DNA of 27,463 bases from IMG/VR virus record IMGVR_UViG_2545824714_000008; one strand, 5' to 3'. The notes under the pieces are model-generated. The model made no database searches. It was not told the DNA's origin and saw only the letters and a list, made by a program, of their open reading frames with translations. Below, piece after piece: positions 2,496 through 23,555 of this stretch (position 1 is its first letter; each line of letters begins with the position of its first letter). The translations under genes were made by a program, and so were the position numbers. Origin of the DNA: a virus (taxonomy: Duplodnaviria > Heunggongvirae > Uroviricota > Caudoviricetes).

Positions 2496-2621
2496 GTAAT
2501 TATTAGCTTCAAAATTATTTTTGCACGAATCAGGTATTACCAAGTAGTTGTCAGTTTTTAAAAACCCAACATCCTAAAATTAGCATTGTTTTTTAACCAC
2601 AAAACATCCACGGAGAAGAAC

Positions 2622-3431
2622 GTGTCAAAAAAGGATACAATCCAGATTATCGATATCAGGATGCAGAGACCAATCATAGCAAGAATAGAAGAAGAAAATT
2701 TAAATTTGACATTGCAAATGTCAGATAAAGCCACATTATCTGGTGCGACAGTTAGTTTTTTCACCCCAAATAACGTTTCTATATTCTTATCCTCAGCAAA
2801 AAAAGAGCTCTCAAAATCCAATTCTATATATAAAAGTCTTTTTGGAAAAATACACAAAACCAAACATAAAAACTTTAAAATTTCCGACAAAGCCCTGCCG
2901 AGACTCTATAATTACTTTGAATCAATTCAGACGGCCATTATTTCTATGTATACTGCAATTGAGTCTTTTGCAAATATATGCATACCACATGATTATGTTT
3001 ATGAAAAAAACAATGCCAAGGGAATCAAAGAATCCTATAGCAAAGAGCTAATTGAGCGATATATACCAACAAGTGAAAAAATAGATAAAATCCTACCGTC
3101 TATTTTAAATTGTGATTCGCCTAAAGGTTCAAAACTATGGCAAGATTTTAAAAGCCTTGAGTCACTTAGAAATGACATAATTCACCCCAAGACAACAAAG
3201 AAAAACACAGAAACAAAAGAAGACTCATCTTTTTTATGCATTTTACTATCAGATGACTTTATAAAAAAAGTTTCCTGTGGATTTGATTTGGTATCTTATT
3301 TTTGCAAACAAGACACTACTCATAGTCTTTTCCCAATGGGTTTCGGTGAAATTGAACTTAAACCTGTCCCAATTAAAGCCGGTGACTTTGAAAAAGTTGA
3401 TGATCATGATGAAATAGAATTACCATCATAA
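2622..3431 (+). CDS. Hypothetical protein, low-GC orphan (about 269 aa from GTG 2622; the ORF opens at TTG 2586)
   Basis: Long uninterrupted ORF in markedly AT-rich DNA with GGAG 6 nt before GTG 2622. Contains an R-x4-H stretch (LRNDIIHPK). No family recognised. Confidence 0.6.
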   Translation: MSKKDTIQIIDIRMQRPIIARIEEENLNLTLQMSDKATLSGATVSFFTPNNVSIFLSSAKKELSKSNSIYKSLFGKIHKTKHKNFKISDKALPRLYNYFESIQTAIISMYTAIESFANICIPHDYVYEKNNAKGIKESYSKELIERYIPTSEKIDKILPSILNCDSPKGSKLWQDFKSLESLRNDIIHPKTTKKNTETKEDSSFLCILLSDDFIKKVSCGFDLVSYFCKQDTTHSLFPMGFGEIELKPVPIKAGDFEKVDDHDEIELPS

Positions 3432-3479
3432 CAAAAAAACACAAACCATAAAGACGGCCATAGGTGGTCTTTATGGTTT
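3431..3479 (-). terminator. Rho-independent terminator downstream of int (minus-strand sense)
   Basis: Perfect 13-bp inverted repeat AAACCATAAAGAC / GTCTTTATGGTTT (3443..3455 and 3467..3479) with an 11-nt loop, followed on the minus strand by a U-rich run (GTGTTTTTTTGT). Confidence 0.6.
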
Positions 3480-3547
3480 ACAATAGACGCAGCCGTTATT
3501 AAATTTAAATCCAACAGCGTTAAAATAAACTAACAATATACGCATAA

Positions 3548-4957: not shown

Positions 4958-5818
4958 TTACACGTGTTTTTCCAATGTGAAAACTACAGCCCCGGCAGGA
5001 GTAATGTCTGTAATGTTGCATTCAAACTCAGCAGACTTATTTGACAACCTGACTTTTCCACCGGGCAAGCGAATTACATCAAAAACATCAAGAGCGCCGT
5101 CGATATCAATTAACCAGCGACCATTACTTATATTCGAAGCAGAACAGTCGACAAGCCAAGAGGCAGCTACACCGTCAACAAAAATCAATTCCCCTGAGTT
5201 AGAAGGAATCATTGAGGGGTCAGGATGCCACGTTCCTGCATCCTTAAGCTCACCAGATTCAAGACGAGATTTTTTAATAGAAAAACCAGATGTGACATCT
5301 TCCCTGTTAGCTCGCATTTGCCCCTTGCCTGTTGCTAACCATTCCAGTGACGTATCGGTATCAAGAGCGCATGTAACAACAACATCACCAGGGAAAAAAT
5401 CTCGCCTTACCCATGTGCTAATTGTGCCAGAGGAAATGCCGAGCAAATCACCGAGCTCCTTTTGCATGGTAAAGCCATACGCATCAAGAATCCTACGCAA
5501 AACGGTTTTACCACCATTCGTCATAATCTCGTCATAAAGCTCTTTGCCTTTTAACTTGCAACTGGCTCGCTCGTGATTTGCATTTGCAAGTTCTCCATTT
5601 ACAAGCCAATTGATATCAGCTCCCGTGTCAAGACAACACCTAACTATGACATTGCCAGGTATTGCATCACGCTGAACCCAGCCGCTAACGCTGTGTTTAG
5701 CGATACCTAGCAGGTCAGCCAAATCCTTTTGCATCTTGACCCCATAGGCTGACATTAAGCGTTCCAATACGCCGTTCGTTGCACTAACACGCCACTGAAC
5801 ATCAAGCTCAGAACTCAT
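4958..5818 (-). CDS. cI: CI-type prophage repressor with a tandemly duplicated N-terminal DNA-binding domain
   Basis: 286 aa. Two similar ~60-aa segments (LERLMSAYGVKMQKDLADLLGIAKHSVSGWVQRDAIPGNVIVRCCLDTGADINWLVNGE and LRRILDAYGFTMQKELGDLLGISSGTISTWVRRDFFPGDVVVTCALDTDTSLEWLATGK) resemble the 186 CI N-terminal domain. Position is next to int and divergent from the lytic operon. Confidence 0.8.
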   Translation of the reverse strand: MSSELDVQWRVSATNGVLERLMSAYGVKMQKDLADLLGIAKHSVSGWVQRDAIPGNVIVRCCLDTGADINWLVNGELANANHERASCKLKGKELYDEIMTNGGKTVLRRILDAYGFTMQKELGDLLGISSGTISTWVRRDFFPGDVVVTCALDTDTSLEWLATGKGQMRANREDVTSGFSIKKSRLESGELKDAGTWHPDPSMIPSNSGELIFVDGVAASWLVDCSASNISNGRWLIDIDGALDVFDVIRLPGGKVRLSNKSAEFECNITDITPAGAVVFTLEKHV

Positions 5819-11933: not shown

Positions 11934-12938
11934 CTAATTTACATGTATGTAGAGTTCACCGTCGCCAGACCAATCGGGACACTCTAAAACAAGCCCAAAC
12001 TGCTTGAATATTTCATCAATGATTATTGTTATCTCCCGAAAATCACCAAAACCTGTAATGTGCTGGTCATTAAACTTCCCATAAAGATTCTGAAAAGCAA
12101 TGCCTAATTCTGATAATTGATATCTTATCTTTGAGTTGGATAGTGTAAGGGATAGCTTTGGATCGTATTCTTTAATATTGATGTTTAGAGAATGGACATA
12201 ACCCATCGCATAAGCATAAGAGTTGATGATTAGCCTGATACGTTTTTTTACTTCAAGATACATGTCATTCAGAGAAATATTACCGTACTTATAACCCCAG
12301 ATGAGTTTTTCAATCTCGTCAGATACTTCATTTACAACAGTGTCAAGATTCTCTAAAAATAAATCGACAGTTTCTTGAGGGGCAGACCCCGAAGACATGT
12401 AATTAGCGAGATATTCAGACCATGCACGCGTGGCTGAGATAAGAAGCGCGCTACCATACTCGTTGACTGTAAAGTTTTGGGCTAAGCATGTTAGTAAGTT
12501 TTTTTCATGTACGTGCACTAATTCATGGTGAATGCGATGGATGACTGCGAGGTATCCTTCTTCTTTCAGTTTTAAGAAGCTACCATCATTGAAAAGCTCA
12601 ACAAAAAAATCAATCGATAGCACAAGGGTATATTCTTCATATAGCCCATCATTGCCAATTTTTGTTACTAACTGCCCGACGGCTGCGCCCTGTTTGCTAT
12701 TGGTAAATGAACTAGGGGATTTGTGTTGGTAAGAGGATGTTACCTTTTGAAGAGCTTCACTGAAGTTATAGGAAACAATCACGCATTTTAATTTGGAGAT
12801 ATCAAGATTGAGATTCTTTGTTAAAGCTCGGATAGCTTCTAGTGTGAAATTACCGATATTATTTGCTTCTTGCTCAGTAGCGAAACCTTCGAGGGTTATT
12901 TTAAAATCAGTTTCCAAAATATTAATCTCCGCGCCCAT
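11934..12938 (-). CDS. Orphan 334-aa protein in a low-GC insertion between cos and the portal gene (candidate accessory/defence gene)
   Basis: Uninterrupted ORF in AT-rich DNA, co-oriented with portal and terminase. Contains an HHELVH (HExxH-like) stretch and no obvious membrane segments. No Shine-Dalgarno evident. Confidence 0.65.
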   Translation of the reverse strand: MGAEINILETDFKITLEGFATEQEANNIGNFTLEAIRALTKNLNLDISKLKCVIVSYNFSEALQKVTSSYQHKSPSSFTNSKQGAAVGQLVTKIGNDGLYEEYTLVLSIDFFVELFNDGSFLKLKEEGYLAVIHRIHHELVHVHEKNLLTCLAQNFTVNEYGSALLISATRAWSEYLANYMSSGSAPQETVDLFLENLDTVVNEVSDEIEKLIWGYKYGNISLNDMYLEVKKRIRLIINSYAYAMGYVHSLNINIKEYDPKLSLTLSNSKIRYQLSELGIAFQNLYGKFNDQHITGFGDFREITIIIDEIFKQFGLVLECPDWSGDGELYIHVN

Positions 12939-13015
12939 TGTTTTGATATTCGATGCACTATAGCTTTCGCAGATTGCATCTTCAATAATGAGCGCAGAGA
13001 TTGTGGCGGCCTAAG

Positions 13016-20895: not shown

Positions 20896-21325
20896 CGCTG
20901 TACCCCAGCTCAGAAACAACCCCGATATGCTGCGTCTTTTCGCCGACAACGGGCATATCGATTCCCGACTGGCGAGCTCGCTGTCGTTTGAAAAGGTGTA
21001 CGTGCTTAACATGGTGGTGACCGACTTTACCGGCGACCTCGATTTGATATTCGTGCCAGTGCAGGCGTGGCTGCGTGAACATCAGCCGGACATTATGACC
21101 ACCGACGACGGGCGGGAAAAAGGATTCACCTGGATTATTGATATCAATAACGACGATTCGCTCGATATCAGTATCAGCCTGAGGCTCACCGAGCGCACGC
21201 TCGTCAAAGAGGTCGACGGCGCGCTGCATGTCAGCTATGCCCCAGAGCCGCCGCTGCCTGAGCCGGTGACGCGCCCGGTCGAGCTGTACGTTAATGGCGA
21301 ACTGGTGAGTAAGTGGGATGAGTGA
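20849..21325 (+). CDS. R: Tail completion protein (P2 gpR family)
   Basis: 158 aa (P2 R is about 155 aa), in P2 gene order. Confidence 0.82.
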   Translation: MNSMQKHKSLRKALINAVPQLRNNPDMLRLFADNGHIDSRLASSLSFEKVYVLNMVVTDFTGDLDLIFVPVQAWLREHQPDIMTTDDGREKGFTWIIDINNDDSLDISISLRLTERTLVKEVDGALHVSYAPEPPLPEPVTRPVELYVNGELVSKWDE

Positions 21326-21773
21326 GTTAACCGCGCTACAGGAACGTCTTGCCGGTCTGATTGCCAGCCTGTCACCGGCGGCGCGTCGGCAAATGGCGGC
21401 TGACATTGCAAAAAAACTGCGCGCCAGTCAGCAACAGCGCATTAAGCGCCAGCAGGCACCTGACGGCACCCCGTATGCCGCCAGAAAGCGCCAGCCGGTG
21501 CGGAGCAAGAGAGGCCGTATCAGGCGCGAAATGTTCGCCAAACTGCGCAGCACTAACCGCTTTATGAAAGCCAAAGGCAGCGACAGTGCGGCAGTGGTGG
21601 AGTTTACCGACAAGGTACAGCGCATGGCGCGGGTGCATCAGTACGGCCTCAAAGACCGGCCAAACCGCAACAGCCGGGATGTGCAGTACGAGGCACGCCC
21701 GTTGTTCGGTTTCACCCGGGACGATGAACTGCTTGTTGAGAAGCTAATAATCGGAGCTATTAGAAATGGTTAA
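21318..21773 (+). CDS. S: Tail completion / virion morphogenesis protein (P2 gpS family)
   Basis: 151 aa (P2 S is about 150 aa), overlapping the R stop. Confidence 0.82.
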   Translation: MSELTALQERLAGLIASLSPAARRQMAADIAKKLRASQQQRIKRQQAPDGTPYAARKRQPVRSKRGRIRREMFAKLRSTNRFMKAKGSDSAAVVEFTDKVQRMARVHQYGLKDRPNRNSRDVQYEARPLFGFTRDDELLVEKLIIGAIRNG

Positions 21774-21821
21774 TTAACAAAAGCATGCTAACTCTTGACA
21801 ATTTGACAACTAGAGTGCACC

Positions 21822-21850
21822 CTAACGCCAGTCAATAGAGTGCGACTGGC
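21822..21850. terminator. Hairpin between gene S and the convergent cargo gene, possible bidirectional terminator
   Basis: 9-bp stem ACGCCAGTC / GACTGGCGT with a 10-nt loop, followed by T-rich sequence on the plus strand. Confidence 0.4.
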
Positions 21851-21890
21851 GTCAAGGAAGATTTTAATCTTTCTTTAGTGGTTCGATTCC

Positions 21891-22766
21891 CTAGCCTCGT
21901 AAATATCGTTTAGTAAATTTCGTGTTTGGTCTGGATGATAGGATTTGTCTTTCTATTTCACTATCACAGTCTATATAGTCTAGTGTATTAGCTTCTATAA
22001 GTTTGTTCACGTCAATATTTTTTGCATCGATTATGTTGGCATTTCTAAGGTTTGCATTGGTGTATTCCACTTTATCCAAATCACACTCTCTGAGTACGCA
22101 ACTTTTCATTTCCGCATTGGAAAAATCCCCACCATATAAATAGCAGCCTTCAAAAATAACACCGTTTAACTTTGAATCCTGAGCTTTAATATTTTTTATT
22201 TTACACTTTATAAATTTTACGTTTTTCATTTTGCTCTTGCTAATATTTAATGCCTGGATTGTACATCCAGTGAAAGAACAGTCTCTTATGTTAGATTTTT
22301 CCATATTTAACCCAGATAGTTCTGAGGTTTTAAAGTGTAAGTATTTAATGGTAAAAAGGTCACCCAACTCCATTCTGGGTATGTCTATATTGAAGACACC
22401 TTTATTGTTGAGCTGTCTTATTATTTTTATTTTTTGTATTTTCAAATCAACATTAACGTGCTTAGCTAAGTTTCCCAAATCCTCAAGAAGTTCATTAATC
22501 GTTTCTTTGTTTTGTCTTCTGTATTCAAAGTAATAAAGGATGACACCTAATACAAAAAAATCCAAAATGGATGAATTTGCATTTATTAGGAACCCAGACA
22601 GGAATGAATCATTGTAATTACCATAGTGTATAGAGGCAAGTGTTACGCCAAATGCATATAAAATAAAAATAATAAACACGTGCTTCATTTTGCATAAGGA
22701 TTGTATTATTGGTTTTATGGCATCAATTTTGTTCATTGCTGCAGCAGCGAAAGATTTAAAAGTCAT
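21891..22766 (-). CDS. Membrane-anchored pentapeptide-repeat protein, low-GC cargo at the S/V junction
   Basis: 291 aa with two N-terminal hydrophobic segments (HVFIIFILYAFGVTLASI, ILDFFVLGVILYYF) and about 19 consecutive pentapeptide-like units in the C-terminal half. AT-rich and on the opposite strand to the tail genes. Confidence 0.7.
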   Translation of the reverse strand: MTFKSFAAAAMNKIDAIKPIIQSLCKMKHVFIIFILYAFGVTLASIHYGNYNDSFLSGFLINANSSILDFFVLGVILYYFEYRRQNKETINELLEDLGNLAKHVNVDLKIQKIKIIRQLNNKGVFNIDIPRMELGDLFTIKYLHFKTSELSGLNMEKSNIRDCSFTGCTIQALNISKSKMKNVKFIKCKIKNIKAQDSKLNGVIFEGCYLYGGDFSNAEMKSCVLRECDLDKVEYTNANLRNANIIDAKNIDVNKLIEANTLDYIDCDSEIERQILSSRPNTKFTKRYLRG

Positions 22767-22919
22767 TCTATTTTTAATGCATTCAGATTAAATGGGATTG
22801 ATGATTTTTACGTGCCCAATGATGCGTGTCAATCAGATCTTTGAAAGTGTCTTGCTGTGTGAGCCCCTTTCCAATCCCGAAGTTTTGTCTGCAATGAAAA
22901 GAAGCGGCATGCTTACATA

Positions 22920-23555
22920 ATGAATACATCAAATATCATTCAAGAGCTTGCCCGTGCAATACGCAACCTCATTCGCACAGGGGTGGTGACTGAGGTCGAT
23001 ACCGTGCAGGGGCTGTGCCGTGTACAAAGCGGCGGGATCCAGACTACATGGCTGAACTGGCTGACCACCCGAGCCGGTCGTTCGCGGACGTGGTGGGCTC
23101 CCTCGGTCGGTGAGCAGGTTCTGCTGCTGGCAATCGGTGGCGAGCTTGATACCGCTTTCGTGCTGCCGGGTATTTTCTCCGACGATAACCCCGCCCCGTC
23201 TGCCTCGGCGGATGCGTGGCATGTGGCTTTCCCTGATGGTGCGGTCATTGAGTACGAGCCCGAGGCCGGCGCGCTGACGGCCAGCGGTATCAAAACTGCC
23301 GACGTGACGGCATCGGAGTCCATCACTGCAACCGTACCGCTGGTACTGGTGAAAGCCTCGACCAGTATCACCCTCGACACCCCGGAGGTGATTTGCACCA
23401 ATAAGCTGACGACAGCGACGCTTGAGGTACAAAAAGGCGGCAAGATGAGCGGCAATATCGAACATACCGGCGGGTCACTGTCGTCTAATGGCAAGGTACT
23501 CCACACCCATAAACACCCAGGCGACAGCGGCGGGCAAACGGGGGCACCGTTATGA
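22920..23555 (+). CDS. V: Baseplate spike/assembly protein (P2 gpV family)
   Basis: 211 aa, the same length as P2 V, starting the baseplate block. Confidence 0.88.
   Translation: MNTSNIIQELARAIRNLIRTGVVTEVDTVQGLCRVQSGGIQTTWLNWLTTRAGRSRTWWAPSVGEQVLLLAIGGELDTAFVLPGIFSDDNPAPSASADAWHVAFPDGAVIEYEPEAGALTASGIKTADVTASESITATVPLVLVKASTSITLDTPEVICTNKLTTATLEVQKGGKMSGNIEHTGGSLSSNGKVLHTHKHPGDSGGQTGAPL

Follow-up and report, generated by a model that had tools for sequence, protein, structure and literature searches.

Qnr, MfpA, AlbG and McbG are soluble, dimeric pentapeptide-repeat proteins that serve as polyanionic DNA mimics; MfpA and Qnr comprise about eight coils. Effectors with two transmembrane (TM) helices, such as those of the CBASS Cap14/Cap15 type, PycTM of Pycsar and the CARF-TM protein of Panoptes, disrupt the membrane once their sensor is engaged. 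The known superinfection exclusion (Sie) proteins, for example T4 Imm, P22 SieA and HK97 gp15, are small prophage-encoded inner-membrane proteins. Here, a protein of 291 residues is described that joins two predicted TM helices to pentapeptide repeats. Its gene lies on the minus strand at positions 21891..22766 of a DNA stretch of 27,463 nucleotides from a virus of the Caudoviricetes (IMG/VR record IMGVR_UViG_2545824714_000008; this whole stretch is called the window). It is an intact and conserved cargo gene of an uncharacterised family and a credible candidate for a defence gene.

The closest functional precedent is HalA, the effector of Hailong, which establishes that pentapeptide repeats are able to control a membrane channel in defence. 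HalA is described as comprising pentapeptide repeats plus an IRK potassium-channel domain (PMC13586616). It forms a tetrameric, depolarising DNA-gated channel, which is kept closed by oligo-dA from the partner protein HalB (PMC13434031). The initial annotation of the window had stated that no such architecture was known for a phage defence protein; in view of HalA, which joins pentapeptide repeats to a channel domain, this statement is outdated. HalA (NF051894) is the top NCBIfam match of the 291-residue protein with an E value of 6.7e-11, but the score is 42 bits compared to an equivalog cut-off of 250. The match to the HalA structure (PDB 9nyi) is limited to generic repeats (query residues 160–237 versus HalA residues 82–154); its E value is 0.0043 for the single sequence and 2.7e-7 for the profile, and it ranks below more than 30 generic repeat proteins. 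The linker alone, searched against PDB sequences, gave no match, and the 291-residue protein has no IRK or ion-channel match in Pfam. The repeats of HalA precede its channel domain, but in the present protein the TM helices come first; the TM part of HalA is described as similar to an IRK potassium channel, whereas here it is a plain hairpin of two TM helices with a loop of eight residues. A halB nucleotidyltransferase gene was found neither beside the gene nor elsewhere in the window, and the island holds one gene. Identity with HalA was rejected on score, domain order, pore type and the lack of an adjacent halB; fold searches likewise did not uphold the lead from NCBIfam.

The two-TM signalling effectors share with the 291-residue protein the combination of N-terminal TM helices and a C-terminal cytoplasmic sensor domain. 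The sensors of these effectors recognise cyclic nucleotides that a partner enzyme synthesises, whereas here the corresponding position is taken by a pentapeptide helix and there is no partner gene; a sequence relation to these effectors was not detected. In contrast to Qnr, MfpA, AlbG and McbG, the protein has a predicted membrane anchor; its repeats make up about 5.5 coils and are net basic, and it scores far below the cut-offs of the corresponding NCBIfam models (38.3 bits versus 240 for the best Qnr model, 28.5 versus 360 for MfpA). Designed and cyanobacterial repeat proteins outscore Qnr at the sequence level; the likeness to Qnr is therefore generic to the fold.

With respect to its genomic setting, the gene resembles P2 Orf30 and the hotspot cargo of P2-like phages (old, tin and fun/Z; the gpA-gpQ hotspot of Rousset et al. 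2022; the tail-gene hotspot of PMC13586616) in that the DNA is AT-rich, the gene nonessential and the site variably filled. Its insertion point and orientation are the same as those of Orf30. The protein is unrelated to Orf30 and lies outside the systems recognised by PADLOC. Among the recognised defence systems of P2-like prophages, 16% sit in the tail-gene hotspot (PMC13586616). The classic P2 study looked only at the gpA-gpQ hotspot (PMC9122126).

A single-gene cassette between two late tail operons

The window represents the left two-thirds of a PSP3-like prophage of the P2 family from E. coli. Host genes coding for CHASE8-GGDEF and OmpA-family proteins are followed by those for integrase, the CI repressor, gpA, portal and terminase, capsid, lysis and tail proteins. 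The coding sequence of the 291-residue protein (876 nt, ATG start) runs opposite to the tail genes in AT-rich DNA, as the initial annotation had noted, and is the sole long open reading frame (ORF) within the interval 21774–22919. A chance origin of an ORF of 876 nt at 31% GC is unlikely. The product is deposited in RefSeq as WP_001394648.1 under the name "pentapeptide repeat-containing protein". The start codon is ambiguous: M1, M11 or M27 are possible, and a clear Shine-Dalgarno sequence precedes none of these three ATGs. Conservation in the family sets in just upstream of M27, and the topology of the protein is the same whichever start is used.

According to the composition profile, the GC content is 0.30–0.36 across positions 21750–22950 and 0.58–0.63 on both flanks. 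The foreign low-GC island (about 31%) extends over 21774..22850, i.e. from the stop codon of gpS to the retained pV promoter region 5' of gpV. The left flank is formed by gpS (21318..21773, plus strand; PF05069, E = 1e-32), the tail completion gene that ends the late O operon, and the right flank by gpV (22920..23555, plus strand; PF04717, PF18715 and PF18946 (Apex)), the baseplate spike gene that opens the V operon. The next neighbours are gpR upstream and gpW downstream of this segment.

The view of the S/V junction, the position of P2 orf30, as a variable cargo site was borne out by the comparison of related phages. The P2 record lists Orf30 as a nonessential protein of 261 residues, likewise encoded antiparallel, with the terminator of the O operon on one side and the activator site of pV on the other. 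P2 Orf30 was considered as a homologue of the 291-residue protein and rejected, as the sequences have no similarity. In most PSP3-like phages, including PSP3, Midge, EtG and the Yersinia vB_YpM phages, the site is empty; the S-V spacer of phage Midge measures 68 bp. An island that is 100% identical to that of the window occurs in four of 5426 complete E. coli genomes, and an allele of about 53% amino-acid identity occupies the same place in 14 further ones. Carriage in this species is thus rare and patchy (18/5426 in all). The gene shows all marks of S/V accessory cargo: the position between the O-operon terminator and pV, the antiparallel orientation, an atypical composition and a variable presence among close relatives. 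It is a horizontally acquired single-gene cargo cassette, which is inserted antiparallel into the gap between two late tail operons.

One further observation was made at the left border. The last eleven or so codons of gpS (21740–21773) are wholly unlike those of phage Midge, which is otherwise 94% identical (...EKLIIGAIRNG* in the window, ...IEDVIIRHLGK* in Midge). The boundary of the island is thus inside the 3' end of S, and the C-terminus of gpS was replaced by the insertion.

All relatives of at least 44% identity with a readable context are solitary prophage cargo, and they were found in three different accessory sites. The first is the P2 S/V junction, where a search for homologues had been advised at the outset: it is occupied in E. 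coli, Enterobacter hormaechei, E. cloacae and Edwardsiella as well as in seven out of eight contigs from IMG/VR, and the gene invariably runs against the direction of the tail genes. The second lies just past ogr in a distant P2-like phage. The third is a prophage end beside SRAP, umuDC and dinI genes, in Citrobacter and in one IMG/VR contig. Where two prophages share 98% identity in gpR, gpV and gpW, the identity of their cargo alleles is only 52%; this divergence, which exceeds that of the flanks, indicates cassette replacement or rapid divergence.

A candidate promoter of the sigma-70 type is located at 22804..22832 on the minus strand. It consists of TTGACA, a spacer of 17 nt and AAAAAT and is a consensus match only (10/12 positions). 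The site lies about 38 nt upstream of the first ATG, back-to-back with the divergent, retained pV region, and the same TTGACA-N17-AAAAAT arrangement also precedes the 66% identical homologue from Enterobacter. A promoter of its own suggests that the gene is expressed independently of the late operons, probably in the lysogen.

Architecture and superfamily of the 291-residue protein

The initial annotation had proposed two N-terminal hydrophobic helices followed by repeats, and hydropathy, AlphaFold2 and Pfam agree on this order. TM1 comprises residues 28–47 (22626..22685, minus strand, as for all following segments) and TM2 residues 55–80 (22527..22604). A cytoplasmic helical linker follows (residues 81–135; 22362..22526), in which the AlphaFold2 model extends the TM2 helix to about residue 100 and places a second helix at 106–121 with a conserved I116-x2-L119-N120 motif. 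The pentapeptide-repeat beta-helix covers residues 141–250 (22017..22346), and the protein ends with a C-terminal cap and helices (residues 251–291; 21894..22016), which contain a conserved A259..L262-D263-Y264 motif.

The repeats were recognised by the Pfam models Pentapeptide_4 (PF13599; E = 3.9e-19, 68.9 bits versus a cut-off of 38) and Pentapeptide (PF00805; E = 9e-13, 47.9 bits versus 20.2). They form 22 successive units of five residues with an unbroken register, equivalent to about 5.5 coils; the initial annotation had recognised the repeats correctly, but its count of about 19 was too low. In the family alignment, the interior positions of the repeats are conserved (majority frequencies 0.82 and 0.79), and the three surface positions are variable (0.57–0.64). 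The AlphaFold2 model, which was based on an alignment of 28 sequences, reached a mean predicted local distance difference test (pLDDT) value of 80.6. It contains helices at residues 28–47, 53–100 and 106–121, a beta-solenoid from residue 139 to about 250 and short C-terminal helices. The anticipated repeat beta-helix is predicted with pLDDT values above 90 over residues 140–250 and has the right-handed quadrilateral fold.

The charges are distributed unevenly around the hydrophobic segments: +4/-1 before TM1, no basic residue in the loop of eight residues, and RR..K after TM2. According to the positive-inside rule, both termini and the beta-helix would therefore be cytoplasmic. The gene thus encodes an inner-membrane protein of predicted N-in/C-in topology, in which a long helical stalk connects the two TM helices to a cytoplasmic pentapeptide-repeat beta-helix of 5.5 coils.

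Conservation is highest in TM2. The mean pairwise identity is 80% for TM2 (residues 51–81), 67% for the linker, 56% for the repeats and 46% for the poorly conserved TM1. An anchor would be expected to resemble TM1, and TM2 is therefore likely to be more than a passive one. This finding, together with a polar and acidic motif in TM2 (L60, N62, N64, S65, D69 and G74 in the window) that extends across the whole superfamily, argues against the passive membrane tether of the initial annotation.

In order to delineate this superfamily, a profile was built from the TM and linker region only (residues 27–142) and used for an exhaustive HMMER search of 1.84 billion cluster representatives (50% identity; E ≤ 1e-3). 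The search yielded 169 clusters, nearly all of which have a length of 250–330 residues. Pentapeptide repeats are present in 62 of the 62 members scanned. These members were found by their TM and linker region alone; the two modules thus always go together and are coupled functionally. A word-indexed profile search with the same alignment gave no match at E ≤ 0.01 although the family was present, which is probably due to a limitation of the tool. Scans of viral contigs with the members P0033 and P0030 detected no relatives, and a pattern search of genome contigs gave pattern matches only and no confirmed relative. The 291-residue protein is a member of a large uncharacterised superfamily of 2TM-linker-repeat architecture, which comprises at least 169 clusters and includes PHROG 12514.

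The 62 diverse members share the TM2 motif Y51..F55..L60-x-[E/N]-x-[H/N]-[G/S]-x3-[D/E]-x4-G. Position 62 is Glu in 34 and Asn in 22 of these sequences; position 64 is His in 43 and Asn in 17. Position 65 is Gly or Ser, position 69 is occupied by Asp (53/62) or Glu (8/62), and G74 is kept in 53 sequences. The other best-kept positions are Y51, F55, L60 and, in the linker, L119. Residues 62, 65/66 and 69 share one face of the TM2 helix (i, i+3/4, i+7). That a TM helix has kept, in different phyla, an invariant acidic residue and, two turns from it, another polar or acidic one suggests that these residues bind ions or line a pore in an oligomer.

The charge of the repeat domain is also characteristic. 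Counted over the protein of the window, the net charge is +9 in the lysine-rich units 0–11, -4 in the distal half and +5 overall. In all 28 close relatives the membrane-proximal half is net basic (+3 to +9), and the mean for the whole repeat domain of the close family is +3.9.

A possible role in phage exclusion and its alternatives

Based on these features, we propose as a tentative reading, possible rather than probable, that the protein is an oligomeric ion-conducting membrane module that is controlled by its beta-helix and used by the lysogen to exclude other phages. Taken separately, the two parts of this proposal fare better: for an ion-conducting or ion-binding module in the membrane the arguments on either side are about equal, and for a role in phage exclusion the balance is similarly even. 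The TM hairpin would be the working part of the protein and not its anchor. Copies of the protein would assemble via TM2 and the stalk, and the polar and acidic stripe on one face of TM2 (N/E62, S/G65, D69) would then provide an ion-binding or ion-conducting path. The cytoplasmic beta-helix could act as a regulatory or ligand-sensing module, whose surface varies by allele and whose membrane-proximal coils are strongly basic in the prophage clade; the variable surface positions of the repeats and the basic belt across this clade are consistent with a sensor. In the lysogen, the expressed protein might bind a component of the infecting phage, nucleic acid or protein, by means of the basic beta-helix. 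The membrane would be opened or otherwise perturbed, and the infection aborted or excluded. Such a protein would act on its own and correspond in function to defence effectors of the channel type, of which HalA is an example.

Several points weigh against this proposal. Oligomerisation and ion conduction are both entirely inferred, and the pLDDT values of the TM region are only 58–73 in the AlphaFold2 model. The periplasmic loop of eight residues lacks the re-entrant pore helix of K+-channel-type pores. A constitutive channel encoded by a single gene would need a gating mechanism, for which there is no candidate, and no conserved partner gene was found at any homologous locus examined. With regard to expression, the promoter consensus scan gave seven sites compared to 5.7 expected by chance. 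The defence models of PADLOC-DB v2.0.0 gave no match to the protein at E values up to 1. PHROG 12514 matches over the full length (E = 1e-159) and is a group of unknown function, and literature searches retrieved neither a paper on the 2TM-pentapeptide family nor an experiment on any member. Finally, four distant relatives from Bacteroidota of the Cytophagia type (P0186, P0189, P0193 and P0205), which align over the full length with 19–23% identity, are encoded in a chromosomal array whose gene order is conserved: ksgA, mgtE, a gene for a 2-hydroxyacid dehydrogenase and that for the repeat protein. This array is vertically inherited, and the ancestral role of the superfamily is therefore probably not defence.

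The same four proteins are the chief argument for a gene of lysogenic conversion or fitness that has no part in phage defence. Its product would fulfil a general membrane role, for example in cation homeostasis or in the regulation of a membrane process, and confer tolerance to stress, metals or ions. The genes of the four relatives lie directly downstream of the Mg2+ channel gene mgtE and the dehydrogenase gene, their neighbours are housekeeping genes, their TM2 acidic motif is common to the prophage proteins, and the 291-residue protein matches no defence model. In contrast, the relatives of at least 44% identity that were examined all occupy prophage accessory sites, the turnover of alleles is far above that of the flanks and carriage is rare. 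Without being decisive, such patterns are seen more typically in conflict genes than in physiological cargo, and we regard a pure fitness gene as rather unlikely. The initial annotation had itself named ordinary chromosomal housekeeping homologues as evidence that would speak against it. Homologues of this kind exist among the Bacteroidota proteins of 19–23% identity, but not among the relatives of at least 44% identity, all of which reside in prophages.

In the Bacteroidota contigs (L015, L016, L018 and L019, with the gene at 5001–58xx), pdxA is divergent from ksgA, and the repeat gene lies 30–180 bp from the dehydrogenase gene. This arrangement suggests that the repeat gene is co-transcribed with a gene for a Mg2+ channel and that this branch of the superfamily has a housekeeping role. 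Among other distant relatives, one adjoins a TIR-Sel1 gene and a ParE toxin gene, and another stands among ordinary metabolic genes. The superfamily is therefore not intrinsically defensive; its proteobacterial clade seems to be an offshoot that is carried by phages.

Superinfection exclusion at the entry step would not require a channel. The basic beta-helix beneath the membrane could bind incoming DNA or ejection proteins, or the protein could mask an inner-membrane host factor needed for genome translocation. The predicted inner-membrane location with a cytoplasmic domain fits this explanation, as does the likely expression in the lysogen from a candidate promoter of its own; the basic belt of the membrane-proximal coils could bind nucleic acid, and the known Sie proteins are likewise inner-membrane proteins encoded by prophages. 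It leaves unexplained, however, why conservation across phyla is strongest in TM2, which has buried Asp and Asn residues, and why the motif is retained in the chromosomal homologues of Bacteroidota. Furthermore, the protein has no similarity to any characterised Sie protein. We therefore consider exclusion without a channel improbable.

The initial annotation had favoured a membrane-tethered DNA mimic or decoy. A protein of the Qnr/MfpA/AlbG type would either shield gyrase or topoisomerase or titrate the DNA-binding proteins that invaders bring in. The beta-helix fold itself is present, but the matches to the Qnr and MfpA models (28–38 bits versus cut-offs of 240–500) are generic to the fold. 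The repeats carry a net positive charge and are not polyanionic, both in the window and as a family mean, and their coils are fewer than the eight or so generally known from MfpA and Qnr. Moreover, a mimic offers no reason for the strongly conserved polar TM2. The mimic and decoy functions are hence weakly supported and appear very unlikely.

An accessory role in the phage's own cycle, be it in the timing of lysis, in directing tail or baseplate assembly to the membrane or as a holin/antiholin-like activity, might be suggested by the adjoining lysis and tail-completion genes and the two-TM product, but is scarcely credible for a gene that lies on the strand opposite to all late genes behind a sigma-70-type candidate promoter, is missing from most of the viable phages that are closely related, is found in other prophages at sites unrelated to this one and has its analogue in P2 Orf30, which is annotated as nonessential.

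With respect to the proposed beta-helix-controlled membrane module, an extended version can be formulated. The superfamily would be a new class of small oligomeric cation channels gated by a cytoplasmic beta-helix, and the prophage alleles would provide immunity by combining sensor and effector in a single gene. The basic helix would recognise nucleic acid or protein of the phage, and the ring of TM2 Asp and Asn residues would depolarise the cell. Such a counterpart of HalA would not depend on a partner, would have a separate evolutionary origin and would reside in a little-studied hotspot between the tail operons of P2-like phages. This version is speculative, and we deem it unlikely.

Flanking sequences, further islands and implications

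A non-coding block of about 65–75 nt overlaps the stop codon of the cargo gene (21825..21899) and is kept at all homologous loci; it was also seen at L001 (2290–2377), L002, L006, L007, L008, L023, L024 and L027. On the strand of the late genes (plus), it resembles a degenerate, mini tRNA-like cloverleaf with a GGTTCGATTCC T-loop. In it, an acceptor-like stem (GAGGT/ACCTC) is combined with a middle hairpin that covaries and with a GGGTTCGATTCCC T-arm. The block is positioned where the transcripts of the late O operon and of the cargo gene converge. Some alleles read through it and acquire tails ending in ...EVRESNPTQ or ...GQGIEPNSVGKPT, and at locus L006 the unit CGAGGTTAGGGAAT is present three times. 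The block travels with the gene between different prophage sites, and in the 5426 E. coli genomes it occurs only beside this gene family. A genuine tRNA downstream of the cargo gene was rejected: ARAGORN detected none, and the Rfam model tRNA-Sec scored only 14 bits (E = 2.6). The block may be what remains of an att site or a tRNA, or else a structured terminator for the convergent transcripts.

On the other side of the gene, the window contains no exact TGT-N12-ACA site, the consensus for Ogr-type late activators, upstream of gpV. The allele of the window has only a half-site-like TGTGTGA at about 22856, which is common to phage Midge. In the allele group of 53% identity (L001, 3201–3339, and the upstream regions of L006, L007, L008 and L012), the spacer between cargo gene and gpV contains an exact TGT-N12-ACA dyad, TGTGTAGAAGAGCATACA. 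A near-copy of the TGTGTAGAAGAGCATACA block accompanies the gene in the non-P2 locus L008 of Citrobacter, hinting at an acquisition of that copy from a P2-like phage.

Two further islands of low GC content were noticed in the window. The first (about 32%; 2500–3500) lies between the host OmpA-family gene and the integrase gene and contains an ORF of 281 codons (2586–3431, plus strand). Its product has no Pfam or NCBIfam match and a weak PADLOC match to a HEPN model (RTasHEPN; E = 1.2e-4), and it contains an R-x4-H-like motif (SLRNDIIHP). It is possibly a cargo gene of the HEPN type. The integrase-att position is a minor defence hotspot of P2 (PMC13586616). The other island (36–38%; about 12000–13000) lies in the classic gpA-gpQ (old/tin) hotspot beside the portal gene. 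Its ORF of 334 codons (11934–12938, minus strand) has no Pfam, NCBIfam or PADLOC match and is a candidate for an unannotated defence gene.

The significance of the cassette depends on its function. If it has no role in defence, it is an ordinary uncharacterised cargo gene of a prophage. If the prophage alleles exclude phages, they would add a single-gene membrane defence, and the S/V gap of P2-like phages would merit systematic mining, given that published surveys centred on the gpA-gpQ hotspot. The proposed mechanism, if true, would provide a first function for at least 169 clusters that are now annotated only as "pentapeptide repeat-containing protein", and a second independent pairing of a pentapeptide helix with a membrane channel after HalA. 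Pentapeptide helices may then be general gating or ligand-sensing modules, and not only DNA mimics.

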